Shown here: piece by piece, positions 31,839 through 50,326 of the stretch
Layout: each line of letters starts with the position of its first letter
Numbering within the stretch: position 1 is the stretch's first letter
Assembly: GCF_056712565.1 (NCBI RefSeq)
Contig: NZ_CM160072.1
Direction: 5' to 3' (one strand)
DNA: 64,000 nt
Notes under the pieces: generated by a model
Told to the model about the DNA's origin: nothing
Databases searched by the model: none
What the model saw: the letters and a program-made list of their open reading frames with translations, nothing else
Translations under genes and position numbers: made by a program

Positions 31839-31904
31839 AACGGGAAGGATGCCGTCGGGTCATACCGGCGGCAATGTGACGATGAGGTGTCGGGAATGGC
31901 ACAA

Positions 31905-32357: not shown

Positions 32358-32817
32358 CCCACTTACTCACCAGTTCGCCATTGATATAAAGCTCCATCGG
32401 GCGGGTGACCGGCTCCGGCGGCGGAGGTTCCGGGATATTCTTCACATGCAGCGCACCGTCAACCTCACTGACCAGCGTGCGCTCGGTCAGCATCAGGCTG
32501 ATGCTGATATCAAAGCTGCTGTCATTGTTGATGTCCGCATAAAACGTGAAGCCCTTTTTCTGGCCTTCGTCGGTGGTCATGATGTCGGGCTGATTTTCCC
32601 GCAGCCACGCCAGCACCGGCACGATGAGCAGGTCAAAATCACCGGTAAAGTCGGTCACAATGACATTGAGCGTGTAACGCTTTTCGAATGACAGCGACGT
32701 CGCCAGTGTGGAGGCAATACTCCCGTTATCCACGAATATCCGCAGCATATCGGGGTTAGTTTTCAGCACCGTGACGGCATCAGTCAGCGCCCTGCGCAGG
32801 CTGTCGGGTTTGAGCAT
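32350..32817 (-). CDS. R: Tail completion protein R
   Basis: 155 aa. Confidence 0.8.
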   Translation of the reverse strand: MLKPDSLRRALTDAVTVLKTNPDMLRIFVDNGSIASTLATSLSFEKRYTLNVIVTDFTGDFDLLIVPVLAWLRENQPDIMTTDEGQKKGFTFYADINNDSSFDISISLMLTERTLVSEVDGALHVKNIPEPPPPEPVTRPMELYINGELVSKWDE

Positions 32818-33070
32818 CGTTTTCGTCCTGACAGTGTTTAATCATTTTTACCTGGCTGGCACAGCGTGCCAGCGCGTTCTCAAGCTGCCGGATATCGGCA
32901 CTTAAATCGCCGTTCGTCTGCGGGTCACTGCCCGGCATCGGGCAAAGGCTCACTTTCGGGCAGGCGTTGGCGACAATCACTGGCGTCAGTGCAGGCCGGA
33001 CGCTGGTGCAACCGGCGCACAGCATCAGGCAGGTCAGCGCCATACCAGCGGCGAAAATCCTCGTTTTCAT
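32780..33070 (-). CDS. lysC: LysC, Rz1-like outer-membrane spanin lipoprotein (embedded in lysB, different frame)
   Basis: 96-aa product MKTRIFAAGMALTCLMLCAGC (lipobox); nested in lysB region. Confidence 0.75.
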   Translation of the reverse strand: MKTRIFAAGMALTCLMLCAGCTSVRPALTPVIVANACPKVSLCPMPGSDPQTNGDLSADIRQLENALARCASQVKMIKHCQDENDAQTRQPAQGAD

Positions 33071-33350
33071 TAAGTAACCTCGTGATGGTTTTCTCGCGCT
33101 GTGCTTCACGTTTCGCGGCGTTCTCCAGTTCCTGACGCAGTGCCACCTGCGCCAGCTCGTTTTTGTCTGCCCTGGTAAGGGCAACATGAAGCTGGTTTTT
33201 CAGCATGGTGATGGTCGTCTGCTGTTCACTGGCGACGTTGTTCGCCCTGTCCAGCGAGGCGCGCAGGCTGGCATTTTTATGTTTCACCAGAAACAGACCG
33301 GCCACCGCCAGCGATAACAACACGACCAGCACAATCATCAGCTTTGACAT
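32925..33350 (-). CDS. lysB: LysB, Rz-like inner-membrane spanin
   Basis: 141 aa, N-terminal TM then coiled coil. Confidence 0.8.
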   Translation of the reverse strand: MSKLMIVLVVLLSLAVAGLFLVKHKNASLRASLDRANNVASEQQTTITMLKNQLHVALTRADKNELAQVALRQELENAAKREAQREKTITRLLNENEDFRRWYGADLPDAVRRLHQRPACTDASDCRQRLPESEPLPDAGQ

Positions 33351-33763
33351 AGTTCCCGCCCCTCAAGACGCTGACGACAGGCTTTACGTATCAGCCGGAA
33401 AAACAGCGACGCCACAAGATAAATCAGCGCGGTAAAAATCCACCCGGCAGCGACCAGCGAGATAAACGTCGCCACCATCACCACCAGAGCCGCCGCCCGT
33501 CTGCGCCACGGCACCGGCTGCAAAAACAGCGACGTGACAATCTTCACGGCCAGCGATTCCGGCGGCAGCTCCCGCCCGTAGCGTTCCAGCACATACTCCG
33601 TGGCATACACGCCGACACCACCGGCAACCACACAGATAACCGTCGCCAGAATCGCCCAGGTGGCGACAAAACTGACGGCCACGCTCTGCGGGTAAATCAG
33701 GGACAGTGCCAGCATCAGCGCCAGCGACACGTTCAGCATCAGTGAAAGGGATAATTTCTTCAT
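33338..33763 (-). CDS. lysA: LysA lysis-timing membrane protein
   Basis: 141 aa, multiple TM helices, after endolysin. Confidence 0.8.
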   Translation of the reverse strand: MKKLSLSLMLNVSLALMLALSLIYPQSVAVSFVATWAILATVICVVAGGVGVYATEYVLERYGRELPPESLAVKIVTSLFLQPVPWRRRAAALVVMVATFISLVAAGWIFTALIYLVASLFFRLIRKACRQRLEGRELCQS

Positions 33764-33777
33764 GGTGTTTACTCCGT

Positions 33778-34275
33778 TTAAGCCGGTACGCCGCCAGCGG
33801 TACGCCAGACGGTGACCAGTTTTTCCAGTGAATGCTCACGCTGACCGTAACCGGCACCCGGCAGGGACGCCCAGATATTGCGACAGCGTGAAATGGCGCG
33901 CTCAATACGTCCCGCCCGGACGTCATCCAGTGCACCGCGTTCGCGGATCAACTGAATGGCAAGTCTGTCCTGTGACAACGGACTGAAATCCGGCAGGGCA
34001 AGCTGTTTGCGGTAATGCGGCCAGAACAGGTAAAGCTGCTGATAGCGACCGGAGGCCGTGGATTTTTCACCGCGACGGTTAAACACCTTCGCCGGTCGGC
34101 CATGCGCGAACGGGTGGTCACTGTAGTCGGTGAAAATTTCCGGCTTTCCGTCCAGTCCGGTGACTATCACGTCATAGCCCCGGTTTTTCGTCAGCGGATG
34201 GTTCGCCGTCCCTTCGGACACTGCCAGCATGTCGAGAAAGGCGGCGATATTCTGATGCGTGTTAATTACCGGCAT
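33778..34275 (-). CDS. K: Endolysin K (lysozyme)
   Basis: 165 aa with EGT-type lysozyme motif (LAVSEGT). Confidence 0.85.
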   Translation of the reverse strand: MPVINTHQNIAAFLDMLAVSEGTANHPLTKNRGYDVIVTGLDGKPEIFTDYSDHPFAHGRPAKVFNRRGEKSTASGRYQQLYLFWPHYRKQLALPDFSPLSQDRLAIQLIRERGALDDVRAGRIERAISRCRNIWASLPGAGYGQREHSLEKLVTVWRTAGGVPA

Positions 34276-34556
34276 TACGGTTTCCCCCTGCCCTTAAAGC
34301 GGCGCTGAATGGCAATCTCAATCACCTGATAACCGGCGATACCCAGCATGGAGCCGATGCCGCACACCGCAGGCAGTGACAGGTCAGGAAACTGCACCAG
34401 AACAACACCGGCAACCATCGAGACAAAACCACCGAGCAACATGCGCCCGATAAACAGACGCGGGGTGATGGGTTCACCACCGGCAAGCACCTTGCCGACA
34501 ACAATCAGCACCCCAATCATGAAAAGCGACAGGACGCTTTTTTCTTCTGCTGTCAT
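34275..34556 (-). CDS. Y: Holin Y
   Basis: 93 aa, hydrophobic, immediately upstream of endolysin. Confidence 0.85.
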   Translation of the reverse strand: MTAEEKSVLSLFMIGVLIVVGKVLAGGEPITPRLFIGRMLLGGFVSMVAGVVLVQFPDLSLPAVCGIGSMLGIAGYQVIEIAIQRRFKGRGKP

Positions 34557-34559
34557 GCG

Positions 34560-34763
34560 TTACTCCCACAGATTGACAGTTTCAGCCACGGGCGCGGTCT
34601 GAACGTCGGGCAGTTCGACGGCGGAGCCATGTGGCAGCACCGCACCCAGTTCAGCCAGTCCCGGATTTGCGGCGAGCACGGTCTCAACCACGCCCTCAGT
34701 GCGCCCGTAATACCGGACACAAATGGCGTCGAGCGTGTCGCCCTGTAGCGCAAAGGTCTTCAT
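34560..34763 (-). CDS. X: Tail protein X
   Basis: 67-aa product MKTFALQGDTLDAICVRYYGRTEG...; ORF-track start is further upstream. Confidence 0.8.
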   Translation of the reverse strand: MKTFALQGDTLDAICVRYYGRTEGVVETVLAANPGLAELGAVLPHGSAVELPDVQTAPVAETVNLWE

Positions 34764-35272
34764 CAGATTTGACTCACGATGCAGCGCGGCTTGTCCTGGA
34801 TGCGCGCCGCTGCCCAGCGCATATCCCGCCACAGCTCATCAATGGTGCTGTCAATGCTGTCGGCCTTCTTGTCTCCTTTCGCACTGGCATCCACGCCGCG
34901 GTAACGCTCATAAAGCGACGCGGTCGCCATCGCACACACGGCGCGCTCGTAGTAAAAAACTTTGATACTTTCACCGTCGATATCGTCCGCCGGAACGTCC
35001 GCCAGACGCGTAAAACCGGCGGCAATTTTCTGTTCGCGGTACTCGTACAGCTCCGCATTTGTTTCCGCCATGCCTGACTTGATGGCCTCACGCAGACGGG
35101 CGGGGGCGACGGTCTGCTCAAGGCGCATACGTTCCCGGACGCGCTTCGGGTCGATATCGGGAAAAAAGAACGTGTTTTTAATCACCGGCTCGTCGCCTGC
35201 CGGTTGCGGGATGACCACCGTACCCTCACCGGACACGGGAGCCTCCTTTCGCGGAATAATCAGCGTCATCAT
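34763..35272 (-). CDS. L: Capsid completion protein L
   Basis: 169 aa starting MTLIIPRKEAP. Confidence 0.8.
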   Translation of the reverse strand: MMTLIIPRKEAPVSGEGTVVIPQPAGDEPVIKNTFFFPDIDPKRVRERMRLEQTVAPARLREAIKSGMAETNAELYEYREQKIAAGFTRLADVPADDIDGESIKVFYYERAVCAMATASLYERYRGVDASAKGDKKADSIDSTIDELWRDMRWAAARIQDKPRCIVSQI

Positions 35273-35371
35273 GACTACCTCTGAAAAGTCGGGCGGTGGA
35301 CGCCGGTGCAGTGTCAGGTGATTCACCCTCACTGACCGGCGTGCCGCCCTGGCGCGGGGCGCATTCGGTTG

Positions 35372-36115
35372 TTAACTGGCTTTCTTTTTCGGGCGTCCAC
35401 GTTTTGCCGGTGTCACGCTCCGGGTCTTACGCGTGGCACGGGTGGCCGCTTTGGGTTGCGGCTCCGGCTTAGGTTTCAGCTCCCGCTCCAGTCGCTCAAT
35501 CTCTTTTTTGACGCCTGCCTGACAGTCGAGCTGTGTCGCACGTTGCAGGTGAGCCAGCGCACCGGCGGCATCACCACCGTCACGCAGAAACAGACCGGTG
35601 ATTTTGTGCAGCTTTGCGCGCACTTCATCAGGCATGTCAGCAGCGGCAGTCAGTTCAAGGGTCTCCGTCAGCAGGCGGGTATCCACAGACTCACCGGCCG
35701 CGTGGGCGCGCATGGCCGCGAGCGCGACCTCCTCGGTGAACATATACGGCGGGGTGCGGCGGTGTTTACCCGGCATGGTCAGACCGTATTTCAGGGCATA
35801 ACGGGCAATCTCCAGCGCACCGGCAATATCGCCGGTATCCAGACGCCACAGCATGACCGTCATCAGAATGTCATCCTGTGCGCCTTTGCCCTGCTCCAGC
35901 ACGCCGTTCACCCACGGCAACCAGAACGGCAGCAGTTCGCGCTTTTTCGCGGCCTTCAGCTCTTTTGAATAAATCGCTTTCAGTGTGCGCTGGTCTGCGG
36001 CCAGCTTGACCAGCATCTGCTCATAGACAGTTGCATGTCGCAGCGGGGCGGCTTCCCGCTGCGCGGTCATCGCTGCCGAGACCCGCATCATGTGGCGCTG
36101 TGCGGGACTCGTCAT
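35372..36115 (-). CDS. M: Terminase small (endonuclease) subunit M
   Basis: 247 aa. Confidence 0.85.
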   Translation of the reverse strand: MTSPAQRHMMRVSAAMTAQREAAPLRHATVYEQMLVKLAADQRTLKAIYSKELKAAKKRELLPFWLPWVNGVLEQGKGAQDDILMTVMLWRLDTGDIAGALEIARYALKYGLTMPGKHRRTPPYMFTEEVALAAMRAHAAGESVDTRLLTETLELTAAADMPDEVRAKLHKITGLFLRDGGDAAGALAHLQRATQLDCQAGVKKEIERLERELKPKPEPQPKAATRATRKTRSVTPAKRGRPKKKAS

Positions 36116-36118
36116 CGG

Positions 36119-37192
36119 TTACGCTCCCGGCTCTGCGGTCGCCTTAGCCGGTGTGGAGAAATCACCGACCTTAATTTTTTCCACCAGACAACCGGCGGCG
36201 TAGTCTTCCACCACGTAATCAATGTTCATTGACTCGTAGTTCTCCACGCGGTCGAGTTTCGGGTTTTCCACAATCACGCGGCGATGGCTGTCATCCATGT
36301 AGTAGATGGACAGGTTTTCCAGCTTCGTGATGAGCATCGCATCCGCCGGGAAGTACGGGACGCGTACCGCCGGCAGGTTACCGATGCGTTTCTGGCTGAT
36401 GATGACGTCAGCGGCCAGCATTTCGCTGTTGTCCTGCTCCTTGTTAACGATGGGGAAATACTTGTCCGCCAGTAGCTGACGCCCCACAATCACCACAAGG
36501 TCAGGGTCTTCCTGATACCACGGTTCAATCAGGTTGTTGGTCGCATCCATCACCAGTGCATCAAGGCTGGCATAATCACCGCCCTTACCCACGCGGATGA
36601 CCTCAGAGGTCGTGTGACCTTCCTCGTCAGTGACCTTGCTCATCACACGCGCCGGGGCTTCATTGCGGTATTTCTGCAGCCAGCCGACCGCCACATCCTG
36701 CAACATCGGATTACTGTTGCGGTCAGAGGTTTCTGCACGCTTCACGCCGTTAAAACCGGCCATGATGAAATCAAGGGACTGGCGTTTGATAATGGCGTTA
36801 CGGATACGGAGCTGGAAATCCTGATAACGCGCCCACAGGTCCAGCGTTTTGTAGCGGATATAAAAATCGAAGTTAATCTGGTCGCATTCGTACTTGTTAG
36901 ACGCCAGCTTCGAGAAGTCCTTCGGCTGACGCTCGGTGCCACCGGCGGTGTCGGTGGTGCTGGCGATGGAGCCGGTGACACCGATACCAATTTTTTCCCC
37001 TTTCATTTCGCTGACCGGCACAATGTTGATGCGGGTCAGAAAGTCAGAGGACTCCTGCATGGTGTTCATCAGGGTCTGGGTGACCGACGGTTCAACGGTG
37101 AATTTTTTCGACACATCACCGGCGTCGATGCCGTTCAGCTCGGCAACACGGGACAGGTAGGCATTAAATTTAAAGCGGGTTTCCTGGCGCAT
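36119..37192 (-). CDS. N: Major capsid protein N
   Basis: 357 aa. Confidence 0.88.
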   Translation of the reverse strand: MRQETRFKFNAYLSRVAELNGIDAGDVSKKFTVEPSVTQTLMNTMQESSDFLTRINIVPVSEMKGEKIGIGVTGSIASTTDTAGGTERQPKDFSKLASNKYECDQINFDFYIRYKTLDLWARYQDFQLRIRNAIIKRQSLDFIMAGFNGVKRAETSDRNSNPMLQDVAVGWLQKYRNEAPARVMSKVTDEEGHTTSEVIRVGKGGDYASLDALVMDATNNLIEPWYQEDPDLVVIVGRQLLADKYFPIVNKEQDNSEMLAADVIISQKRIGNLPAVRVPYFPADAMLITKLENLSIYYMDDSHRRVIVENPKLDRVENYESMNIDYVVEDYAAGCLVEKIKVGDFSTPAKATAEPGA

Positions 37193-37250
37193 AGTTTTTC
37201 CTGAAATTAAGGGTTAATCGTGAAGGTTTTCCCGGACTGACTGACGCCGG

Positions 37251-38105
37251 TCAGCAGTTCGTCATCAGGGCGTCACCGCCACCACCGGTGGCCTTGCTGC
37301 GGCGCTGCTGGGTCAGACTTTCGGTGTGGTCGAGACTGTTTTTCAGGCGGGTGAATGCCTGGCTGGTTTCATCCGCCCTGTCAGTCACCTCCTGCTTAAG
37401 TGCGGAAAAGGCGGTTTCCATCTCAGCGAGGCGCTGCTCAGTGGCGCTCAGTTTTTCCTGCACATGTTCAGCAACAGCGGTCACCGCTTCATGCACGTCA
37501 TTCAGACGGGCATCATCGCTGGCCTGTTTGCGGCCAAAAATGGACTTCACCTTTTCGGTCAGGACGGTGAACACTGTTTCAGGCAGGTCTTCAAATTCCA
37601 GCTCAACAGGCGTTGCCACTGAAATCAGGTTTTCAGGGCTTAATTTGAAGCGGTTCAGGGGGTTGTGTTTTGCCGTGCGGCAGAATTCCAGGTATTCCGT
37701 GCCGAGGCTTGCCGGGTCATCGGTGACGGCCAGACCCACCAGATAACATTTGCCGGTGTTGGCAAAGTTCGGCTGAATTTCCATTGAGGTGTAGACCTTC
37801 TGCGCGGCCTTGTTCATCGCGATAAGGTCATCGGTCGGGGTGATTTTCGCAAACAGCGCCCATTTGCCTTTCAGCGCCGAATCATCGTCAATCTTTTCGG
37901 CCTTAAGTTCGGCCACATCGCCATAACGTTTAAAAATACCGTCAGGCAGGATGCCGCGCAGATGTTCCAGGTTAATGCGGCAACCGTAGACACGCGGGTC
38001 AAAGGTTTCAGCCATTTCCTGAATATCCTGCGCACTGATGACACGCCCGTCACAGGTGTCACCCTCAACGCCGATACGAAAGAATTTTGAGACTTTTTTT
38101 GCCAT
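37251..38105 (-). CDS. O: Capsid scaffold protein O
   Basis: 284-aa product starting MAKKVSKFFRIGVEGDTCDGR. Confidence 0.85.
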   Translation of the reverse strand: MAKKVSKFFRIGVEGDTCDGRVISAQDIQEMAETFDPRVYGCRINLEHLRGILPDGIFKRYGDVAELKAEKIDDDSALKGKWALFAKITPTDDLIAMNKAAQKVYTSMEIQPNFANTGKCYLVGLAVTDDPASLGTEYLEFCRTAKHNPLNRFKLSPENLISVATPVELEFEDLPETVFTVLTEKVKSIFGRKQASDDARLNDVHEAVTAVAEHVQEKLSATEQRLAEMETAFSALKQEVTDRADETSQAFTRLKNSLDHTESLTQQRRSKATGGGGDALMTNC

Positions 38106-38278
38106 TGTCAGGAGTCCTGAATAGTGATTAGAGGAGTCACATGTCGGCATCAGTTTCCCGACGATGCGCATCCTCCGCCATCAGTCCCGGATGGCTTATC
38201 ACTGACACAACAGCACCTTAGCGAATCGCAGGGCGCGACTCAGTAGCCTTGCCGTGTATTCATCACGGCGAGGTATTC

Positions 38279-40051
38279 ATGACCATCACCACAGACACCA
38301 CTCTTTTACACGACCCGCGTCGTCAGGCGGCGCTGCTGTACTGGCAGGGATTTTCCGTGCCGCAGATTGCCGCCATGTTGCAGATGAAACGCCCGACAGT
38401 GCAGAGCTGGAAACAGCGCGACGGCTGGGACAACGTTGCCCCCATCAGCCGTGTCGAAATGAGCCTGGAAGCGCGGCTGACCCAGCTCATCATCAAACCG
38501 CAGAAAACCGGCGGTGACTTCAAGGAAATTGACCTGCTGGGACGCCAGATTGAACGACTGGCACGGGTAAATCGTTACAGCCAGACCGGCAACGAGGCAG
38601 ACCTTAATCCGAACGTCGCTAACCGCAACAAAGGCGGGCGGCGCAAACCGAAAAAAAATTTTTTCAGTGACGAGGCCATCGAAAAGCTGGAGCAGATTTT
38701 CTTTGAGCAGTCTTTCGACTATCAGTTGCACTGGTATCGCGCCGGGCTTGAGCACCGCATCCGCGATATCCTGAAATCCCGCCAGATTGGCGCGACGTTT
38801 TATTTTTCCCGCGAGGCGCTGCTGCGCGCCCTGAAAACCGGCCATAACCAGATTTTTCTGTCGGCCAGTAAAACGCAGGCGTATGTGTTCCGCGAATACA
38901 TCATCGCCTTTGCCCGGCTGGTTGACGTTGACCTGACCGGTGACCCGATTGTCCTGGGCAATAACGGCGCAAAACTGATTTTTCTCGGCACCAACTCCAA
39001 CACCGCACAGAGCCATAACGGCGACCTGTACGTCGACGAGATTTTCTGGATCCCGAATTTTCAGGTACTGCGTAAGGTGGCATCAGGTATGGCCTCACAG
39101 AGTCACCTGCGCTCGACCTATTTCTCCACCCCGTCCACGCTGGCGCACGACGCCTACCCGTTCTGGTCAGGTGAACTGTTCAACCGGGGACGCGCCAGCG
39201 CCGCCGAACGCGTGGAAATCGACGTCAGTCATAACGCCCTTGCCGGTGGGCTTCTCTGTGCGGACGGCCAGTGGCGGCAGATTGTCACCATTGAGGACGC
39301 CCTGAAAGGTGGCTGCACGCTGTTCGACATTGAACAGCTCAAACGCGAAAACAGCGCCGACGATTTTAAAAACCTGTTCATGTGTGAATTTGTTGACGAC
39401 AAGGCGTCGGTGTTCCCGTTCGAGGAGCTGCAACGCTGCATGGTCGACACGCTGGAAGAATGGGAAGACTATGCGCCGTTTGCCGCCAATCCGTTCGGCT
39501 CCCGCCCGGTCTGGATTGGTTACGACCCGTCACACCGTGGCGACAGCGCCGGATGCGTGGTACTGGCACCGCCGGTGGTGGCCGGTGGCAAATTCAGAAT
39601 ACTTGAGCGTCACCAGTGGAAAGGCATGGACTTTGCCACTCAGGCGGAATCCATCCGCAAACTCACCGAAAAATACAACGTCGAATACATCGGTATTGAT
39701 GCCACCGGCCTCGGTGTCGGCGTGTTCCAGCTCGTGCGCTCGTTCTATCCCGCCGCGCGCGATATCCGCTACACGCCGGAAATGAAAACCGCAATGGTGC
39801 TCAAGGCAAAAGACGTCATCCGCCGTGGCTGTCTGGAATATGACGTCAGCGCCACCGACATCACCAGCTCGTTTATGGCTATCCGCAAGACCATGACCAG
39901 CAGCGGACGCAGCGCCACTTATGAGGCCAGCCGCAGCGAGGAAGCCAGCCACGCCGACCTCGCCTGGGCGACCATGCACGCCCTGTTAAATGAGCCACTC
40001 ACCGCCGGTATCAGCACCCCGCTGACATCCACCATTCTGGAGTTTTACTGA
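38279..40051 (+). CDS. P: Terminase large (ATPase) subunit P
   Basis: 590-aa product starting MTITTDTTLLHDPRRQ; divergent from O. Confidence 0.88.
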   Translation: MTITTDTTLLHDPRRQAALLYWQGFSVPQIAAMLQMKRPTVQSWKQRDGWDNVAPISRVEMSLEARLTQLIIKPQKTGGDFKEIDLLGRQIERLARVNRYSQTGNEADLNPNVANRNKGGRRKPKKNFFSDEAIEKLEQIFFEQSFDYQLHWYRAGLEHRIRDILKSRQIGATFYFSREALLRALKTGHNQIFLSASKTQAYVFREYIIAFARLVDVDLTGDPIVLGNNGAKLIFLGTNSNTAQSHNGDLYVDEIFWIPNFQVLRKVASGMASQSHLRSTYFSTPSTLAHDAYPFWSGELFNRGRASAAERVEIDVSHNALAGGLLCADGQWRQIVTIEDALKGGCTLFDIEQLKRENSADDFKNLFMCEFVDDKASVFPFEELQRCMVDTLEEWEDYAPFAANPFGSRPVWIGYDPSHRGDSAGCVVLAPPVVAGGKFRILERHQWKGMDFATQAESIRKLTEKYNVEYIGIDATGLGVGVFQLVRSFYPAARDIRYTPEMKTAMVLKAKDVIRRGCLEYDVSATDITSSFMAIRKTMTSSGRSATYEASRSEEASHADLAWATMHALLNEPLTAGISTPLTSTILEFY

Positions 40052-41085
40052 TGAGCAAGAAAAAAGGGAAAACACCGCAACCTGCGGCAAAAAAAATGAC
40101 CGCCAGCGCCCCGAAAATGGAGGCATTCACCTTTGGTGAGCCGGTGCCGGTACTCGACCGCCGTGACATTCTGGATTACGTCGAGTGCATCAGTAACGGC
40201 AGATGGTATGAGCCGCCGGTCAGCTTTACCGGTCTGGCGAAAAGCCTGCGTGCTGCCGTGCATCACAGCTCACCGATTTACGTTAAACGCAATATTCTGG
40301 CCTCGACATTTATCCCGCATCCGTGGCTTTCGCAACAGGATTTCAGCCGCTTTGTGCTGGATTTTCTGGTGTTCGGTAATGCGTTTCTGGAAAAGCGTTA
40401 CAGCACCACCGGTAAGATCATCAGACTGGAAACCTCACCGGCAAAATATACCCGCCGTGGCGTGGAGGAGGATGTTTACTGGTGGGTGCCGTCCTTCAAC
40501 GAGCCGACACCTTTCGCGCCCGGTTCCGTGTTTCACCTGCTGGAGCCGGATATTAATCAGGAGCTGTACGGCCTGCCGGAATATCTCAGCGCCCTTAACT
40601 CTGCCTGGCTGAATGAGTCGGCCACGCTGTTCCGCCGCAAGTATTACGAAAACGGCGCGCATGCCGGATACATCATGTACGTCACCGATGCCGTGCAGGA
40701 CCGCAACGATATCGAAATGCTTCGCGAAAACATGGTGAAGTCGAAAGGCCGCAATAACTTTAAAAACCTGTTTCTCTATGCCCCACAGGGGAAAGCCGAC
40801 GGCATTAAAATTATCCCGCTCAGTGAAGTGGCGACGAAGGACGATTTTTTTAATATCAAAAAAGCCAGCGCCGTTGACCTGCTGGATGCGCACCGCATCC
40901 CCTTTCAGTTGATGGGCGGCAAGCCGGAAAACGTCGGGTCTCTGGGTGATATTGAGAAAGTGGCAAAGGTCTTTGTCCGCAATGAACTTATCCCGCTACA
41001 GGACAGGATTCGGGAAATAAACGGCTGGCTCGGTCAGGAGGTCATCCGCTTTAAAAACTACTCACTGGACACTGACAACGGCTGA
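40051..41085 (+). CDS. Q: Portal protein Q
   Basis: 344 aa, downstream of P, adjacent to cos. Confidence 0.88.
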   Translation: MSKKKGKTPQPAAKKMTASAPKMEAFTFGEPVPVLDRRDILDYVECISNGRWYEPPVSFTGLAKSLRAAVHHSSPIYVKRNILASTFIPHPWLSQQDFSRFVLDFLVFGNAFLEKRYSTTGKIIRLETSPAKYTRRGVEEDVYWWVPSFNEPTPFAPGSVFHLLEPDINQELYGLPEYLSALNSAWLNESATLFRRKYYENGAHAGYIMYVTDAVQDRNDIEMLRENMVKSKGRNNFKNLFLYAPQGKADGIKIIPLSEVATKDDFFNIKKASAVDLLDAHRIPFQLMGGKPENVGSLGDIEKVAKVFVRNELIPLQDRIREINGWLGQEVIRFKNYSLDTDNG

Positions 41086-41254
41086 ACATCGCCGCCTGCG
41101 GGCGGCTTTTTTACACCCCGTCATCACGCCCTCACACGCTCACCACCGCACAAAACACCCCGCAGACACACCAGCGCCTCAACGGGCAGACTAAGCGCCG
41201 TCACGACGCGCTGAGACGCTGAAAAAATAAAATCAGCACCACCGCCAGCGCGCA

Positions 41255-41273
41255 GTGCTTTCCCCGCCTCGCC
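41255..41273. other. cos site (19-nt cohesive-end sequence, complement of GGCGAGGCGGGGAAAGCAC)
   Basis: Exact match to the P2 cohesive-end sequence as I recall it, between Q and the right-hand cargo gene. Confidence 0.8.
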
Positions 41274-41588
41274 CGCCCGCTTCATGGGGCGGTTTTAATG
41301 CAGTTGCATGATGAAACTGAAATCACATCAGCACTGACCGAAACTGACAAAAAGAATAGTATCTGACACATGCAAAAACACGCACTTAATATACGCCTAT
41401 CTATAGCTCCTACAGGATTGTCAAAAAACGACCAACTCGTCATAGCGTAAACACATTTGGCTCAACGAACACTTACGTTATATGCCTCTTGAACATATCA
41501 AAGTCTTAAGGTAGATCTTTACCACTAAGTGGCTATATTAAGCTGCTTTTTTACATACAATAAAAGCTTTATCGTATGAGGCATAAAA

Positions 41589-43805
41589 ATGGAACTTAGA
41601 TTAAAAAATGTTACCAGTTATAAGAAAGACGCCTTCACAATACTGAATCTTGAAAAAAGAGTAAACATACTATACGGCCAAAATGGTTGTGGCAAATCTA
41701 CCATTTCAAATTATTTCTACGACTCTACACACACAGATTATAACGAGTGTGAATGTACCCTTCTTGACAATTACAAACCTCTTGTTTACAACACTAAATT
41801 TATTGAAGATAACTTCTATAATGCACAGGAACAAAAAGGTGTTTTTACATTAAGTAAAGAAAATGCAGATATTGAAAAACAATTAATTGAAAAAGAAGCA
41901 ATTAAACAGCAACTCACAGAGCAATATAGACAAAAAAAAGGAGTGTTATTGAAATTAGAAGCAGAAATGGAAAAAAAAGAAAATGAATACATCGAATCGA
42001 TCTGGAAAAAAACAGAACCAATCAGAAACTCTGTACTAAAAACCTTAATGAAAGGTAAAGTTGGCTATAAAAGACCTTTTTTTGAGATGATAAAATCATC
42101 CTCACCAATCACCTTTATTAATTTAAATGATATAGCAAAAGAATACTCTATACTATTAGAAAATAGAAACAATGAAACCGCATTAATAACTCCTTTACAT
42201 CCATATACCCCATCAATTGATGATGTAAATACATTAGCAACACCTATAATAGATACAAGCAATAGCTATTTATCAGAAACCATTAATAAACTTCATAATC
42301 TTGACTGGGTAAAAAAAGGTAAAGAACATTATTTAGACGGTTCTACATGTCCGTTTTGTCAGGAAAAAACTATTAGTCACGAATTTTTAAATGCCCTTAA
42401 ATCAATATTTGACGAAAGTTATTCAAAGAAAGTAAAACAGCTCTCAGATATAAAGTCAGTTTATGAGAAAAATACCATATATCATTTTAACGAAATACAA
42501 AACAATATATCATCATGTGCACTAATCAATGAGAAAGATAAAGAGAACATTATTTCCAATATTAAAATATTGCAAAACATTGCAGAAAAAAATTTAATAA
42601 ACATTATTGATAAGATCAACAATCCATCAACATGCGTTACATTAGAAATTGATAAAGAACTAGAAAATCATGTTCAGGAAAGCATAGGCGCTGTTAACAA
42701 GAAAATAAGAGACATAAATGATAAGGTTAAAAAACTCAAAGAGTATGAGAATAAAATCGGAAAACAAGTTTGGGGGGCTCTCCATGCTTTTTGCAGCGAT
42801 GATTTAGAGAATTTATCCAAACACAAAGAAAAATTCTTTGATATCAAAAAGAAAGTTCATGATGAATTAAATAATATTGAGCAACAAGGAAAAGAAAATA
42901 ATCTCACAATAAAAGCATTGCGAGATAAAATATCTAACATTGATTCTACGATAGACTCAATAAACACCCATTTAAAAAATCTAGGGATCTCTGGTTTTTG
43001 TATTGAAAAACATGCAGAAAGAAAAGATATGTACATTATATCTCGACCAGGGCATACAAAAAACCAAAATGTTTATAGATCTCTTAGCGAAGGTGAAAAA
43101 ACACTAATAACGTTTCTTTATTTTTTAGAGTGCTGTAAAGGTAAAACCGATAAAAATGATACCGATAGCAGGGATATTTTTATTGTTATTGACGATCCAA
43201 TATCTAGTCTATCGCAAAACTATGTCTACGACATCGCATCAATTATTCATCACCACATTATAAAAAATGAATTAACAAAGAAGGTATTAATCCTTACTCA
43301 CAATCTTTATTTCTTTCATGAACTTATTAAGCTATCTCCTAAAAGCAGAGAAGACAAACTATTTAAGAAAAACTATTATCTAGGTAGAGTAACGAAAAAT
43401 GATTTTAGTATAATTACTGAAATACAAAAAAACAGCATACAGAATGAATATCAATCTTTGTGGCAAATATTAAAAGATGCAAAAGATGGCAAAGCAAACA
43501 AAATCATAATACCGAATATTATGAGAAACATACTAGAATATTATTTTGCATTTGTTCATAGAACAGATGCTCTACAAGATGAATTAACAAAGTTGGCACG
43601 CGACGATAGCAACAGTGATTTCAAAGCATTCTACAGATACATTAACAGAGGTTCTCACTCTGATGCGGTAAATATTACTGATATGGGCGACATAGACCCA
43701 GATAAATACCTAAAACAATTGAGAACAATATTTTCAGCTACTGGTGACGAAATGCATTATTTAAAAATGATGGACGAACTAGAAGAGGAAAACGTTACCG
43801 CTTAG
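41589..43805 (+). CDS. SMC/ABC-type P-loop ATPase with CxxC and C-terminal R-x3-E...H tail; RloC/PrrC-like anticodon-nuclease candidate (prophage cargo, tin/old position)
   Basis: Walker A GQNGCGKST near N-terminus; CPFC about aa 253; Walker B IFIVIDDP and LILTHN H-loop about aa 525-560; C-terminal RNILE...H; strongly AT-rich. Confidence 0.7.
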   Translation: MELRLKNVTSYKKDAFTILNLEKRVNILYGQNGCGKSTISNYFYDSTHTDYNECECTLLDNYKPLVYNTKFIEDNFYNAQEQKGVFTLSKENADIEKQLIEKEAIKQQLTEQYRQKKGVLLKLEAEMEKKENEYIESIWKKTEPIRNSVLKTLMKGKVGYKRPFFEMIKSSSPITFINLNDIAKEYSILLENRNNETALITPLHPYTPSIDDVNTLATPIIDTSNSYLSETINKLHNLDWVKKGKEHYLDGSTCPFCQEKTISHEFLNALKSIFDESYSKKVKQLSDIKSVYEKNTIYHFNEIQNNISSCALINEKDKENIISNIKILQNIAEKNLINIIDKINNPSTCVTLEIDKELENHVQESIGAVNKKIRDINDKVKKLKEYENKIGKQVWGALHAFCSDDLENLSKHKEKFFDIKKKVHDELNNIEQQGKENNLTIKALRDKISNIDSTIDSINTHLKNLGISGFCIEKHAERKDMYIISRPGHTKNQNVYRSLSEGEKTLITFLYFLECCKGKTDKNDTDSRDIFIVIDDPISSLSQNYVYDIASIIHHHIIKNELTKKVLILTHNLYFFHELIKLSPKSREDKLFKKNYYLGRVTKNDFSIITEIQKNSIQNEYQSLWQILKDAKDGKANKIIIPNIMRNILEYYFAFVHRTDALQDELTKLARDDSNSDFKAFYRYINRGSHSDAVNITDMGDIDPDKYLKQLRTIFSATGDEMHYLKMMDELEEENVTA

Positions 43806-43833
43806 GCCGCATATTATCGTTTTGGGTAAGAAC

Positions 43834-43853
43834 GACGGTGCTTACGCACCGTC
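43834..43853. terminator. Possible hairpin between convergent ATPase gene and gene A
   Basis: 8-bp stem gacggtgc/gcaccgtc with 4-nt loop; no clear T-run. Confidence 0.3.
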
Positions 43854-44028
43854 TCCCAACGCCCAAAGCGGTAGCGGTTGTACTGGCGTACATTCACTAG
43901 CTTTAACATGAGGCAATCTCCATGCCAGCACTATTGTTGCCAATAGCAGCCTTTATACCCTTTGTACAAAGCTAATACCAAGAGTAATGCAAAGTAGATG
44001 TCCCAAGCGGTAACGGGGCTATTCTATG

Positions 44029-46320
44029 TCAAACACAGAAAAAATCAAAGCGCCCTATGAATCCCCCCCAACCATCAGCGACCGGATACGTGAATTTTTT
44101 CCCGTCATAATTTACGGTCGCTCCACGCGCCAGCGCCTCAAGCTCCCATCGCTGCGGCATGATACCGTTCTGAGCAAGGTCAACGCGGATACGGGTGATT
44201 TGCAATCGTTCAGACCTGGTCAGTCTGGCAGATGGTGCAATTTCATGCGGTTTTAACGGGCTTCCGTTTCTTTGCTGACGGTTTGGCGTTCTCAGGTCGT
44301 ATTTTAATGCGCCCCTGAGCGCCCTCACGACCTCCGGTTCATTCCATTCAATAACACCGTCATCAACCAGATTAAGCACTGCTGCGGCGTGCTCAGAAGG
44401 TGTGGGAGCCGGTAACGAAGTATCACCACCGGTGAGCTTTCCACAGTTATTGACAGGACTCCGAGGCGCGGCGATGCCGCTTTTTAAAGTCAAAGGCTCA
44501 ACGACCGGAACTTTCGGCACAATGCGCCAGTCCGTCGTTCTGGTGATATGAATATGACGCGCGCCGAGATGCGGCGCGTAAATGCCGACCACTCTCTCGA
44601 CTTCTTCCTCGTACTCGTTAACGTCATCCGACGGGCTACGGGCAACCCTGACAGTCTGACAATCGCGCGGGACATTTGCCCCACCCTGCGCGCTGATATA
44701 CAACGCAAAATCACCACTGTCTGCGGCAGCGCGAGCAGCCTCGACGCGTTCGTCAAACTCATCAGCAATACTGACGCCGCGAGGCAATTTGCGTAGTTCA
44801 CGGTAAGCCCCCATTGTCGGCAGGCCAACCGTTTTAAATTGCGGAATTCGCCACGTTGACGCCCATGCGGTAACAGCCGCAGCAGTATCTTTCAGCGGCC
44901 TGCCGGTATCATTATCGAGCTGACCATCCAGTGCATAGCCATCGATGTTTTTTGAGATGTATTTTGCGATATACCCCGCAGCACCGCCCCGGTTAAGATG
45001 TTTTGCCTGAAAACGGTTTCGCGCGGCTCCTCTTTCGTCGCCATCCTCTTTGAGCGCATAGCGACGCATGATTTCGATAATCTGGTTACGCTGGCGTGGA
45101 TTACAAAAAAGCATCATATGCCAGTGCGGCGTTCCGTCGTGGTGTGGCTCGACGACACGCAAACCGTAGACCTGTAAATCATTATCCTTGAATGCCGTGC
45201 GCATCAGGCTCCAGATATGGCAGAGATAACGCTGCGCATCCTTTGGATTAAATGCCTCATCGTTCCAGCCGTGATTTAGCTGGACGGTTTTACTTTCGCC
45301 TTTTCCGACCTGACGTGTCGGGTGATACTTTGACGGCGCGGTAAGCGTGATAAACATCCCCACATCACCCTCTGCGGCGGCGTAACGCTCAATACCGGCA
45401 ATGGTGTTCATCAGCTCCATCCGGCGAATTTCAGGATTAGAAATACTGCCCATCACCTTACTGATAAGGTCGATGCGTTCGCCGGTTTCCCTGTTTTCAA
45501 GGTCACACGATTTAAGAAATTCCAGATTTGCCTGGCGGCGTGCACGCACATCACGAATGGCATGTTTACTGGCATAAGGTGAACGGTCTTTATTGACCTC
45601 CCCGACAGCAATCAGTAACGCCTCATGCCAGCGCATACGCTGGCCTTTAAGCTGACTAATCCACCACTCATCGTTAAACAGGCGGGCAATGGCAGAATAT
45701 GCCTGCCTCGTGGTCATCTGTCCTTTACGGTATTTTTTCCAGTAGAGCGGGGAAATATTGAAAGCACGTGCAGCGCCAGCAACATGACCATAGAGGTGAG
45801 CCTGCGCCTCATCCGTAAACAGCGATTCTTTTTCGCCATGCGCATCCACCCAGGCATCGCAGAGTTCCTCATACATCATGAAAAGCTGCGATGAGATACG
45901 GGCGGCAAACTTTTTCAGCTCCTTATCATTCATCCCCGGCAGACGCGCATAATGGTCACGCTCTGCCAGAAACAGCAACGACGCGTCGGTGTTCATTTCA
46001 TGGCGCTGATTCACACGCTCAATGCGCGGCCATAAACGACGCTGAAAAGTGGATGTGAGGAAATAAAACCCGTGCACCGGGCTTTTATTGCGCCGGATGT
46101 AGTCATAGCGTGAAGTAAACAGCGAGCGCAAAAAGTAAGGCAGGCGGTTAATCGTGGATAAAACACCTTGCACCTGACGCATCTCGTCACGTGTAAGGGG
46201 TCTTTCGCGCCCGACGGCCTCGCGTGGCGCGTTCCATGCATAAGCACCGGTAAACGTCTTACCGGTGCCTGCGGTAAATGCTGACGGAGGGACAAAACGC
46301 CCGGAGGCTTTAACGGCCAT
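44029..46320 (-). CDS. A: Replication initiation protein A (rolling-circle nickase)
   Basis: ORF 44029..46362; probable start MAVKASGRF at 46320. Confidence 0.88.
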   Translation of the reverse strand: MAVKASGRFVPPSAFTAGTGKTFTGAYAWNAPREAVGRERPLTRDEMRQVQGVLSTINRLPYFLRSLFTSRYDYIRRNKSPVHGFYFLTSTFQRRLWPRIERVNQRHEMNTDASLLFLAERDHYARLPGMNDKELKKFAARISSQLFMMYEELCDAWVDAHGEKESLFTDEAQAHLYGHVAGAARAFNISPLYWKKYRKGQMTTRQAYSAIARLFNDEWWISQLKGQRMRWHEALLIAVGEVNKDRSPYASKHAIRDVRARRQANLEFLKSCDLENRETGERIDLISKVMGSISNPEIRRMELMNTIAGIERYAAAEGDVGMFITLTAPSKYHPTRQVGKGESKTVQLNHGWNDEAFNPKDAQRYLCHIWSLMRTAFKDNDLQVYGLRVVEPHHDGTPHWHMMLFCNPRQRNQIIEIMRRYALKEDGDERGAARNRFQAKHLNRGGAAGYIAKYISKNIDGYALDGQLDNDTGRPLKDTAAAVTAWASTWRIPQFKTVGLPTMGAYRELRKLPRGVSIADEFDERVEAARAAADSGDFALYISAQGGANVPRDCQTVRVARSPSDDVNEYEEEVERVVGIYAPHLGARHIHITRTTDWRIVPKVPVVEPLTLKSGIAAPRSPVNNCGKLTGGDTSLPAPTPSEHAAAVLNLVDDGVIEWNEPEVVRALRGALKYDLRTPNRQQRNGSPLKPHEIAPSARLTRSERLQITRIRVDLAQNGIMPQRWELEALARGATVNYDGKKFTYPVADGWGGFIGRFDFFCV

Positions 46321-46585
46321 ATGAGCCAAAAGCCTCTGAACAACGCTTGCTGAGTTGCTCAACCTGCGCGTTTAAATCAGCAAAAGACTTTGCGCTTCCG
46401 GTCAGAATATCGTGATGCATCAGGCCGGAAACGAGCTGGCTTAATTTCGGGTAATAACCAACCACCGCCAGCCATTCCTGACCGGCGTTTTTACCGCTTT
46501 CCGCTCTCTTTTTCTCGTGGAGAATAAACTGAAAGCTGTCACTGGTAACGACATAACGTTCGCCAATTTCAATACGAATACTCAT
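46310..46585 (-). CDS. Small early-region phage protein (P2 orf83 position)
   Basis: 91-aa ORF between B and A. Confidence 0.6.
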   Translation of the reverse strand: MSIRIEIGERYVVTSDSFQFILHEKKRAESGKNAGQEWLAVVGYYPKLSQLVSGLMHHDILTGSAKSFADLNAQVEQLSKRCSEAFGSYGR

Positions 46586-46806
46586 GCCGTTCTCCGGTAA
46601 TGTTTGTTTTTTGCTTCAAAGACTGACTGACAGGAAACACAACGCGTGGCTGACGGATAAGCCGCACGACGGGCAGCAGGTATTGGCGCGTCACACTCTT
46701 CGCAAACCAGCGCAGAAGCACCGCAATGTTTTACCCTTGCCGCGTTAATCTGGCGCTCCAGTAATTCAGCCTGTTGTTCCTGAATAAAATCTACGTTGTC
46801 CGGCAT
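46582..46806 (-). CDS. TraR/DksA-type C4 zinc-finger protein (P2 orf82 position)
   Basis: 74 aa with CEEC...C-x2-C. Confidence 0.65.
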   Translation of the reverse strand: MPDNVDFIQEQQAELLERQINAARVKHCGASALVCEECDAPIPAARRAAYPSATRCVSCQSVFEAKNKHYRRTA

Positions 46807-46808
46807 TA

Positions 46809-47111
46809 TCAGCTCCTTTTATCGTTAAGTTTCCTGGATACATCAGCGCAATAACTGGCAAGTTCTGTCGTTAATTTTGTCAGTTCATCCACTGAGGAAA
46901 TTTGCTTGTGGAATACAGCGCGTTTAACAAGTAAATTGACCACATCAGACAGGAGGTTTAATTCATTCTGATAAATCGCGATAACAGATTCAGTGATGTC
47001 GCGTTTTTCTTTATCAAGACAAAGTTGAATAAGAGACAAATCGCCATTTTTCATAACGGCGATTTTTAAGGCGTTATTCAGTAATACAACTGAATGAGAA
47101 CAGGACATCAA
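46809..47111 (-). CDS. Small early-region phage protein (P2 orf81 position)
   Basis: 100-aa ORF. Confidence 0.55.
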
Positions 47112-47332
47112 AGTACCTCCCCGCGAGACAATCCGATATTGTGAAATTTTTCCGACTCCTGACTGAGCAGCTCGACTATCTCCACGCGGGATAACTCCGC
47201 CTTTGTGATATGGCGAATCATGGCGTCAAGATGAGAAGAAAAGCGCGTCGCAGCGTCGGCCTGTGCTTCGGTTCTGGCCTGTTGCAGCAGTAATGCGTAT
47301 TTACCGCACTGATTTTCAGAAACTGTATGCAT
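47108..47332 (-). CDS. Small early-region phage protein (P2 orf80 position)
   Basis: 74-aa ORF. Confidence 0.55.
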
Positions 47333-47395
47333 GACTTTCTCCGGGCAAAAAGAAGCCCCGCACGATTAAGCGCGTTAAAAACTCTGGTTAATTAC

Positions 47396-47902
47396 TTAAT
47401 GCAGATATTGCTCTGGTTTTACCGACGTCAGAATTGTCGGTGCATACTCAAACAGACTGAATAATTCACGTAATGCACGGAATAAAGCATCACGCCAGTA
47501 ACATGATTCCTCATTAATTCGCCAGTATGGCTGGTTAAATTCTTTTTCTGTCAGTCGTGCGTGCATAAATAAAGTGCGACGCTGACTGACTGTTAAAAAA
47601 CTAATATATGCATACTCACTTGCGCCAACCTGACGGCGTTTTGAGAATGCCCCACGCAACTCATCAATTGCACATACCAGTCGTTCACGTTCGACGTCGT
47701 TCATTTCTTCAAAACGCATCGTTGCGTGACGCTGTTTTAACTGCGCATGAAAGCAAACCGTTAGCCGTTCGCGCTCCATCATCTGATTATAATAATCACA
47801 TGTATCCTGCCAGCGAGGAACGGCAAGATGCTTACCAATTATCCGGCGCATAGCTGCTGGCTGTTTTTCAACGAGATTGAGCGTCATCACTGTCATTTCC
47901 AT
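47396..47902 (-). CDS. B: Replication protein B (helicase loader)
   Basis: 168 aa. Confidence 0.85.
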   Translation of the reverse strand: MEMTVMTLNLVEKQPAAMRRIIGKHLAVPRWQDTCDYYNQMMERERLTVCFHAQLKQRHATMRFEEMNDVERERLVCAIDELRGAFSKRRQVGASEYAYISFLTVSQRRTLFMHARLTEKEFNQPYWRINEESCYWRDALFRALRELFSLFEYAPTILTSVKPEQYLH

Positions 47903-48087
47903 ACCCTCCGGCTTTTCAGAAAGGTCAGAGCCTTTTTTAACGGACTCTGTTTTTTGGTGCGGATAATGATTCCCTTACGCCCCTTACCGTGGGTGATGGT
48001 GAAGTCAATCGCCCTGGGGCTTTCGTTACGCAATAACTGAGCAATACAACGAGGCTCGTTCATACGGTTCTCCTTAACGTGGTTCAC
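47893..48087 (-). CDS. Small protein (P2 orf78 position)
   Basis: 64-aa ORF between cox and B. Confidence 0.55.
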   Translation of the reverse strand: MNHVKENRMNEPRCIAQLLRNESPRAIDFTITHGKGRKGIIIRTKKQSPLKKALTFLKSRRVWK

Positions 48088-48349
48088 CGAGACCTAACCA
48101 CATCAACCAGCCGTCACGAATCTCTTTAGGGCGGCTTTCATAAGCCAGTTTTAGTCCGTTATTCCATGCCGGAAGGTATACCCAATATTCACCTGCACGA
48201 CCTGAAGCTGATTGTGGATCGGTCATATCAATTACAGGCAGCTTTCCTTTATCGATCATCCGACGAACCGCTCCTGTCGATTTTCCTATTAGTTTTGCGA
48301 ACTCCTGATAAGGAATCGCATCAGTCATGAGTGTTACTTGCTTGCTCAT
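48074..48349 (-). CDS. cox: Cox (excision directionality factor and Pc repressor)
   Basis: 91 aa starting MSKQVTLMTDAIPYQEFAKLIGKSTGAVRRMIDKGKLP. Confidence 0.88.
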   Translation of the reverse strand: MSKQVTLMTDAIPYQEFAKLIGKSTGAVRRMIDKGKLPVIDMTDPQSASGRAGEYWVYLPAWNNGLKLAYESRPKEIRDGWLMWLGLGEPR

Positions 48350-48463
48350 GTCGTCCCCCAGCCCTCATGAATTGCGTTTAATGCCTTATAATGCCTTTTA
48401 GTGCCCACATCCAAGCACTAAACAATCTACATCTAAACTAAATACCATTGAGATCTAAACACC
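48350..48463. promoter_or_regulatory. Immunity switch region (divergent early and repressor promoters with operator direct repeats)
   Basis: Intergenic between divergent cox and C; direct repeats catctaaac / gatctaaac about 22 bp apart. Confidence 0.5.
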
Positions 48464-48763
48464 ATGTCAAACACGATAAGCGAGAAGATAGTCTTAATGC
48501 GAAAATCAGAGTATTTGAGCAGACAACAACTTGCTGATTTAACAGGGGTTCCGTATGGCACGCTGAGTTACTATGAAAGTGGTCGTTCAACACCTCCAAC
48601 AGATGTCATGATGAACATCCTGCAGACCCCACAATTCACCAAATACACTTTATGGTTCATGACCAATCAGGTCGCTCCTGAGTCCGGGCAAATTGCGCCC
48701 GCTCTCGCACACTTTGGGCAAAACGAAACAACGTCGCCCCACTCCGGTCAAAAGACTGGTTAA
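48464..48763 (+). CDS. C: Immunity repressor C
   Basis: 99 aa starting MSNTISEKIVLMRKSEYLSRQQLADLTGVPYGTLSYYESG. Confidence 0.88.
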   Translation: MSNTISEKIVLMRKSEYLSRQQLADLTGVPYGTLSYYESGRSTPPTDVMMNILQTPQFTKYTLWFMTNQVAPESGQIAPALAHFGQNETTSPHSGQKTG

Positions 48764-48878
48764 CAATTTATCGTGAATATATTCATCACAAGTGCCTACT
48801 ATTGGTGGCTAAATTTCAGCCACCACGAAAAAAGCGATTAGTAGTAGCAAAAAAAAGTACCACTCGGAGGGTTTTCTG

Positions 48879-49892
48879 ATGGCAATCAAAAAACTCGATG
48901 ATGGTCGATATGAAGTGGACATCCGCCCTACTGGACGTAACGGAAAACGCATCCGTAGGAAGTTTGATAAGAAAAGCGAAGCTGTCGCTTTCGAAAAATA
49001 CACGTTGTACAACCACCACAATAAAGAATGGCTATCAAAACCAACAGACAAACGACGTCTGTCGGAACTGACACAGATCTGGTGGGATTTAAAGGGTAAA
49101 CACGAAGAGCATGGGAAATCTAATCTTGGAAAAATTGAAATCTTCACAAAAATAACGAATGACCCATGCGCATTTCAAATCACGAAATCCCTTATCAGCC
49201 AGTACTGCGCCACCCGAAGAAGCCAGGGTATTAAACCTTCGAGTATCAATCGTGATTTAACATGTATTAGCGGCATGTTTACAGCCCTGATTGAAGCGGA
49301 GTTATTCTTTGGTGAGCACCCTATCAGAGGGACAAAGAGGCTTAAGGAGGAAAAACCAGAAACAGGCTATCTCACACAGGAAGAAATTGCCTTACTGCTT
49401 GCAGCACTTGACGGCGACAATAAAAAGATTGCGATTCTTTGCCTGAGTACAGGAGCACGTTGGGGAGAAGCAGCTCGTTTGAAAGCAGAAAATATCATCC
49501 ATAACCGCGTCACGTTTGTTAAAACGAAAACAAACAAACCACGCACCGTCCCGATTTCAGAGGCTGTTGCCAAAATGATCGCGGATAACAAACGAGGTTT
49601 TTTATTCCCTGATGCTGATTACCCTCGCTTCAGACGAACAATGAAAGCAATAAAACCGGATTTGCCAATGGGGCAAGCCACACATGCACTAAGGCACAGC
49701 TTTGCCACTCATTTCATGATTAATGGAGGAAGTATTATCACGCTACAACGGATACTAGGTCACACGCGGATTGAGCAAACTATGGTTTACGCTCATTTTG
49801 CGCCAGAGTACCTTCAGGACGCCATTTCTCTTAATCCGCTAAGAGGTGGTACTGAGGCCGAGAGTGTCCACACAGTGTCCACAGTAGAGTAA
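48879..49892 (+). CDS. int: Integrase (tyrosine recombinase)
   Basis: 337 aa; catalytic R...HALRHSFATHF...GH...YAH; adjacent to att core. Confidence 0.9.
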   Translation: MAIKKLDDGRYEVDIRPTGRNGKRIRRKFDKKSEAVAFEKYTLYNHHNKEWLSKPTDKRRLSELTQIWWDLKGKHEEHGKSNLGKIEIFTKITNDPCAFQITKSLISQYCATRRSQGIKPSSINRDLTCISGMFTALIEAELFFGEHPIRGTKRLKEEKPETGYLTQEEIALLLAALDGDNKKIAILCLSTGARWGEAARLKAENIIHNRVTFVKTKTNKPRTVPISEAVAKMIADNKRGFLFPDADYPRFRRTMKAIKPDLPMGQATHALRHSFATHFMINGGSIITLQRILGHTRIEQTMVYAHFAPEYLQDAISLNPLRGGTEAESVHTVSTVE

Positions 49893-49971
49893 CGTTTAAG
49901 GGCTTTCAGTGGTAATTTATGCCGCTCAAACCCGCATTGTACCGTTGAAAGCCCCTACTGGTGACACCCTA

Positions 49972-49998
49972 AATCTCCCTTACACGGGCTTATTTTTT
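49972..49998. repeat. Prophage right attachment core (27 bp, AATCTCCCTTACACGGGCTTATTTTTT)
   Basis: Matches P2 att core; paired with 15398..15424. Confidence 0.8.
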
Positions 49999-50326
49999 AT
50001 GCATAAGCCCTATCCCTGGTCACCGTCTTCCATTGACCACATCGATAGAATCCTCCTTCATAGCACGATGCTTTTCACTTATCGACATCGTGCTCGCACA
50101 GGTTCCGGTTACGCACAGCCAGAACGCGCATGTTTGACGCTTACCAAAAAATGAACCTAAAGCATTGGAACATTTTTGACATCATTTTCTGATGGCTGCA
50201 TAAAATAAAAATTCTGCTTTAGTTTCATCTATCTGTTTGTCATTATTACTCACATTCAATAATGGTGTTGAAGAATATCCCATCACAGATAAAATAAATA
50301 TGTGCATGGTAGTCTTGAATCTATTC

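Follow-up and report, generated by a model that had tools for sequence, protein, structure and literature searches.

The window, by which we mean the whole 64,000-nt stretch of DNA analysed here, carries a complete P2-type prophage in which the regulatory genes cox and C are arranged divergently on either side of a short spacer. The ORF listing places this spacer at 48350-48463 and gives it a length of 114 bp, as described in the sequence-only reading that our analysis followed up. The switch features annotated in the P2 record AF063097 could be transferred to the window at a constant offset (window position = position in locus L001 + 46499) and are compiled in Table 1 together with the features that we found by repeat search and consensus matching.

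Table 1. Features of the prophage and of its cox-C switch, in window coordinates
Feature	Position	Strand	Basis
Complete P2-type prophage under control of the switch	15398..49999	.	blastn/tblastn against P2; junction alignment
27-bp att core copies	15398-15424, 49972-49998	.	junction alignment
cox, 91 aa, repressor of Pc and excision directionality factor	48074..48349	-	ORF; tblastn; AF063097 annotation
Putative Shine-Dalgarno region of cox, GGGGGA (P2: AGAGGA)	48354..48359	-	sequence and P2 alignment; Shine-Dalgarno role putative
Pc -35	48367..48372	+	AF063097 annotation, transferred
cox-box 1, TTAAACGCA	48381..48373	-	consensus match 9/9
cox-box 2, TATAAGGCA	48390..48382	-	consensus match 7/9
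Pc -10, TATAAT	48387..48392	+	AF063097 annotation and sequence
cox-box 3, TAAAAGGCA	48400..48392	-	consensus match 8/9
Perfect 8-bp inverted repeat, TTTAGTGC/GCACTAAA, gap 10 nt	48397..48422	.	repeat search
Partial third half-site copy, CTAAACA (last 6 bases of O1 and the next base)	48418..48424	+	repeat search
O2 half-site of the C operator, ATCTAAAC	48431..48438	+	equals 'O2 repressor binding site' of AF063097
Pe -10, TGGTAT (P2: TAGTAT)	48442..48447	-	AF063097 annotation and alignment
O1 half-site of the C operator, ATCTAAAC	48453..48460	+	equals 'O1 repressor binding site' of AF063097
Pe -35, TTGACA, over codons 1-3 of C	48465..48470	-	AF063097 annotation and sequence
C, P2-type immunity repressor, 99 aa	48464..48763	+	ORF; PDB match
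int, P2 integrase, 337 aa, co-transcribed with C from Pc	48879..49892	+	ORF; P2 comparison

Promoter layout and prophage context

The cox and C genes diverge, yet their promoters Pe and Pc converge and stand face to face. Because of this convergence, the operator adjoins the start codon of C and not cox. The gene order int-C/cox, a C protein of 99 aa, a spacer of 114 bp and cox-boxes over Pc are all found here and characterise a P2-like C-type switch. The earlier description of the spacer as an immunity switch is therefore right for the region as a whole, but the operator forms only one part of it, since Pc and the cox-boxes occupy the half nearer to cox.

Pc combines a TATAAT -10 element with a -35 hexamer at a spacing of only 14 bp, so that the -35 assignment is the depositor's call and lacks a consensus match. 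Scanning with the published cox-box consensus TTAAA(G/C)NC(A/C) (PMC3936717) yielded three phased boxes at 48373-48400 that cover Pc; they follow each other at 9-10 bp, in line with the 10-11 bp reported for P2 Cox. On the opposite strand, the Pe -10 lies between O1 and O2, separated from the Pe -35 by 17 bp. Judged from the -10 elements, transcription would start near 48435 from Pe and near 48399 from Pc, giving an overlap of 37 nt, in agreement with the ~35 nt by which the P2 Pe and Pc transcripts overlap (PMC1904263). The inverted repeat at 48397-48422 falls within the stretch transcribed from both promoters and is identical in P2; as RNA, it is predicted to form an 8-bp hairpin (centroid -7.6 kcal/mol, z = -2.2). 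An Rfam search of the switch gave no match.

Compared with P2, all essential genes, namely Q, P, O, N, M, L, X, Y, K, R, S, V, W, J, I, G, FI, FII, E, T, U, D, and ogr as well as int, C, cox, B, and A are full length. The tail-fibre gene H (26683-29412, minus strand) is P2-like over the first ~207 residues only (84% identity). Its ORF encodes 909 aa, compared with 669 aa in P2, and the remainder is different, suggesting a different receptor specificity. P2 orf30 is absent (around 31838-31903). At the fun(Z) position of P2, the region 22449-25565 contains an IS3-type transposase pair with HTH_Tnp_1 and rve domains (24292-25565, minus strand), a DUF5677 protein (23552-24307, minus strand) and a short tyrosine recombinase of 228 aa (22861-23547, minus strand). 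At the old/tin cargo position, 41589-43805 on the plus strand encodes a 738-aa AAA_13 ATPase that matches the PADLOC candidate defence family PDC-S06 (E = 1e-254) and, in its C-terminal part, the PrrC model (E = 1e-12). This protein is likely to be an anti-phage cargo gene product of the P2 variable region.

The attachment site touches a small RNA gene. The CyaR/RyeE sRNA gene (15336-15421, plus strand; Rfam RF00112, 100 bits) reaches into the left att core, so that the P2 attachment core corresponds to the terminator region of the sRNA, which is rebuilt by the prophage end. The right core is followed by host yegR (region to 50704). The same int-yegR junction occurs in 64 complete E. coli genomes. 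Our search of the literature on the prophage of strain APEC O1 and on cyaR and att found nothing usable.

The direct repeats and the C repressor

The sequence-only reading had pointed to the repeats catctaaac and gatctaaac, about 22 bp apart. Both are present, at 48430-48438 and 48452-48460, and they share the exact 8-mer ATCTAAAC, whose two copies start 22 bp from each other. A GATC (Dam methylation) site at 48452-48455 overlaps the start of O1 (gATCTAAAC), and O2 is preceded by C (cATCTAAAC).

Taken alone, the ATCTAAAC repeat is statistically unremarkable. Exact direct repeats of at least 8 bp occurred in 9.7% of 5000 dinucleotide shuffles of the 114-bp spacer, in 6.1% of these shuffles when the repeat was limited to within 40 bp, and in 9.5% of the 114-bp tiles of the window. 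The longest repeat of the spacer is not the operator pair but TAATGCCTT, present twice in the cox-box region at a distance of 10 bp, and an automated repeat search listed an overlapping CTAAACA pair (48418 and 48455) and assigned the ATCTAAAC pair to no family. We nevertheless accept the ATCTAAAC pair as real, because a direct pattern search of both strands of the 64 kb found only these two copies, both inside the cox-C spacer, and because they fit O2 and O1 of P2 exactly: the half-site sequence, the 22-bp distance and the position are all those of the annotated P2 operator. We also considered secondary operators elsewhere in the window and rejected them, as copies of ATCTAAAC with one mismatch were fewer than expected (24 observed, 41.6 expected).

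The partial half-site copy at 48418-48424 lies 14 bp beyond O2, and P2 has the identical sequence. In P2, the C footprint reaches ~12 nt past O2, to about +16 of Pe (PMC1904263), and the partial copy may be tied to this extension.

The repressor gene leads to the same assignment. The C protein matches P2 C in PDB 2L49/2XCJ with E = 8.5e-64 and is identical to it at 98 of 99 residues, the sole change, I70V, being conservative. Residues Y31, S35, Y36, and R41, which have been proposed to contact bases in P2 C (PMC2995052), are unchanged, and tblastn found Cox and Int to be 100% identical to their P2 counterparts. The earlier proposal of a direct-repeat operator for a P2-type C repressor thus holds base for base. 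Taken together, the ATCTAAAC repeats are almost certainly O2 and O1, the half-sites of the operator at which C, the immunity repressor of phage P2, acts, and the E. coli prophage that carries them is intact and of P2 type. The operator itself is an object already known in detail from phage P2.

C proteins of one immunity group are at least 95% identical and share a recognition site (PMC3448106). By this criterion of C identity, the prophage is of the P2 immunity class and does not represent a new specificity. The claim that the region defines the immunity specificity of the prophage accordingly stands insofar as the region defines a class; that class is the classical P2 one. Over 901 bp around the site, the window is 98.7% identical to P2 (AF063097/NC_001895) and to five further P2 isolates. 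The neighbouring orf78/B sequence is shared by 71 P2-like phage records, only 10 of which also have the cox-C region in common with the window, and most of the remaining records lose homology at ~48064-48078, at the end of cox. In the heteroimmune relatives 720R8, 11W, and P24E6b, C is identical to the C protein of the window at 65, 50, and 50 of 99 residues, respectively, and their spacers contain neither ATCTAAAC nor the W-phi half-site. As judged by alignment, the homology of heteroimmune relatives stops exactly at the cox-C module. In the comparison with P2-like operators that had been suggested as a check, O1 and O2 equal those of P2, and ATCTAAAC is absent from the three heteroimmune spacers.

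The spacer was found at a minimum of 95% identity in 403 of 5426 complete E. coli genomes (~7%). For an unbiased sample, we used 54 IMG/VR loci retrieved through a 20-mer inside the C gene, so that presence of the operator was not a condition. O2 is invariant in all 54 loci and O1 is identical in 53. Variable positions amount to 1 of 16 in the operator and 11 of 98 in the rest of the spacer, and the conservation of the half-sites is not statistically separable from that of their surroundings, because no available relative of the class falls below 96% identity in the spacer. Some related prophages of the P2 immunity class have decayed: int is annotated as frameshifted in E. coli S88 (locus L144, 3030-4039), and strain B1.H1.1 (hit H146) carries an IS1 insertion in cox. 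The prophage in the window has neither of these lesions.

Phage P2 (AF063097, 2XCJ/2L49) is the closest known system. It has the same half-sites at the same 22-bp distance and the same placement relative to Pe -35 and -10, the C start, and Pc, and it differs in four spacer substitutions, in residue 70 of C, and in its non-essential cargo genes. W-phi and P2 Hy dis likewise have a C repressor of ~100 aa acting on two direct repeats at Pe and convergent Pe and Pc promoters. However, W-phi uses 10-bp half-sites (TATTGGTGAC, Pe strand) placed 34 bp apart around the -10, whereas P2 Hy dis uses 8-bp half-sites placed 26 bp apart around the -35, and the repressors of the two phages share 43% and 63% identity with P2 C, respectively (PMC1904268). 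Neither of their half-site sequences is present here. Phage 186, also of the P2 family, similarly has lytic and lysogenic promoters that face each other and a second, Cox-like repressor, Apl, but differs in its larger, unrelated CI, an extra cII gene and another operator architecture, whereas the repressor here is of the C type (PMC3448106). A more distant parallel is lambda cII, which also uses a helix-turn-helix to bind direct repeats (TTGC-N6-TTGC) that straddle a promoter element. Lambda cII is an activator that binds as an asymmetric tetramer to repeats one turn apart, whereas P2 C is a repressor that binds as symmetric dimers to repeats two turns apart (PMC2995052).

Regulation expected from the P2 model

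Identity of sequence, spacing, position, and repressor was established here, whereas binding, cooperativity, bending, and repression are carried over from the P2 literature. P2-type C repressors of ~100 aa bind two direct repeats and not a palindrome (PMC1904268), and P2 C is a symmetric dimer (PMC2995052). The P2 operator consists of 8-bp half-sites, 22 bp apart from centre to centre, that span the Pe -10 (PMC2995052, PMC1904268), and binding of C to it has been demonstrated by EMSA and SPR (PMC2995052, PMC1904268, PMC1904263). When one half-site is mutated, repression in vivo is kept, whereas mutation of both raises Pe to 24% of its derepressed level (PMC1904268).

Transferred to the window, this model would work as follows. 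In the lysogen, the weak Pc promoter would yield C together with Int. One C dimer would bind each half-site cooperatively, with the repeats flanking the Pe -10 at a distance of two helical turns from each other, and C binding would bend the DNA and exclude RNA polymerase from Pe. As Pe reads leftwards into cox-orf78-B-...-A, its repression would result in a silent prophage and in immunity to phages of P2 immunity. If Pe wins instead, Cox would occupy the phased cox-boxes and wrap Pc, turning off C and int and directing excision. We infer that the P2 mechanism holds for this prophage, including its I70V repressor and an altered base in the Pe -10.

Base 48446 and alternative readings of the switch

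Four substitutions, at 48357, 48359, 48384, and 48446, distinguish the spacer from that of P2. The first two fall into the ribosome-binding region of cox, where they change AGAGGA to GGGGGA, and the third, between the -35 and -10 of Pc, occupies the N position of cox-box 2. The fourth, C instead of T on the plus strand, changes the Pe -10 to TGGTAT (TAGTAT in P2), so that the A at hexamer position 2 is lost. This A, at -11, belongs to the pair of bases that promoters conserve most strongly. A consensus promoter scan found TTGACA-17-TAGTAT in P2, and the identical scan found no promoter in the window.

Both the loss of this highly conserved A and the outcome of the scan speak for a switch that is partly disabled in spite of its intact operator. 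TGGTAT would weaken Pe and bias the prophage towards lysogeny or lock it there; the operator would have little to repress and would still confer immunity against incoming P2. We regard this reading as tentative and, weighing the evidence, as somewhat unlikely. It is favoured by the rarity of the C allele. Searches with diagnostic 55-mers, which seed only where base 48446 matches, found C in 19 and T in 376 complete E. coli genomes, and C is present in 2 of the 54 IMG/VR loci. C was found in none of the 10 isolated-phage records of the P2 immunity class, but these correspond to only ~6 distinct phages, which makes their count uninformative at an allele frequency of ~5%. Strain PE144, moreover, equals the window over 5114 bp including host flank, save for base 48446, which points to a recent point mutation in a resident prophage. 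On the other hand, the Pe -35 is a perfect TTGACA at 17 bp, a mitigating feature that can support a weak -10, and the change itself could create a putative extended -10, TGG-TATTTA, shifted by 3 bp. The prophage also shows no decay, all of its essential genes being full length, and the distribution of the allele across diverged hosts is compatible with phages that are still spreading. With the strength of Pe uncertain in this prophage, the share of the operator in silencing it is uncertain as well.

Genomes with the C allele include APEC O1, SF-468, HS13-1, and several O1/O2:K1:H7 strains, and all C-allele prophages examined use the attachment site described above. The allele occurs on at least four spacer/switch haplotypes, and the yegR flanks of the hosts differ by 3-5%. 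UTME-13 and JCKP02 carry it on other backgrounds, and no other genome matches the 1001-bp switch region of either strain perfectly; at least 24 genomes are one mismatch away from the region of UTME-13 and at least 13 from that of JCKP02, and none of these is on the list of C-allele genomes. LD27-1 represents a fourth background. The number of haplotypes, the diverged host flanks, and the near-identical sister genomes with T refute the idea that the allele marks a single clone, and the change at 48446 very probably arose more than once.

We rejected the recurrence as a sign of selection. When the 33 haplotypes of 61 unbiased loci are arranged in a neighbour-joining tree, site 48446 requires 2 parsimony steps and is no more homoplasious than its neighbours: 15 of 54 variable sites require at least 2 steps, and 48033, 48439, and 48463 require 4-5. 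The C allele is a real minority polymorphism that may weaken the promoter. A more far-reaching version, in which 48446 is a natural down-mutation of Pe that originated independently several times in resident prophages (the lineage of the window as compared with PE144; UTME-13, JCKP02, and LD27-1), appears improbable to us.

A second alternative concerns the repeats themselves: abundant Cox might also, or instead, use them in the manner of cox-boxes to repress Pe, the promoter from which cox itself is read. On the plus strand, O1 (CTAAACACC) and O2 (CTAAACTAA) match the cox-box consensus at 8 and 7 of 9 positions, respectively; Cox is autoregulatory, and its published footprint extends beyond Pc in the direction of Pe once the Cox concentration is high. 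The published account, however, describes growth of a filament from the Pc boxes, without nucleation at O1/O2 (PMC3936717), and binding of C at O1/O2 has been shown directly for P2 (PMC2995052, PMC1904268). In addition, the 22-bp distance does not fit the 10-11 bp phasing of cox-boxes, and in a spacer so rich in A/T, a degenerate consensus that is itself A/T-rich is often matched at 7 of 9 positions. We therefore consider a role of the repeats as Cox sites very unlikely. That the repeat is a functionless coincidence can practically be dismissed: although an 8-bp direct repeat arises in 6-10% of shuffled 114-mers, the positions here are those of the experimentally defined P2 operator with its published binding and mutation data, the window holds only 2 copies in 64 kb, and 53-54 of 54 relatives have kept them.

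The assignment of the repeats to the P2 C operator is the correct recognition of a textbook phage operator and adds little beyond what is known from P2. Its value lies in annotation, as it fixes the immunity class as P2 and places Pe, Pc, O1, O2, and the cox-boxes at exact coordinates. It also predicts that the lysogen would be immune to P2 and sensitive to W-phi, P2 Hy dis, and 186. The sole lead that might matter more widely is the natural substitution in the Pe -10, which affects the most conserved position of this element. If it were a true down-mutation, the host lineage would keep a prophage that serves immunity and defence while its lytic potential is cut by one point mutation between the two half-sites, and base 48446 would offer a cheap example of a prophage that one base change might tune or ground.
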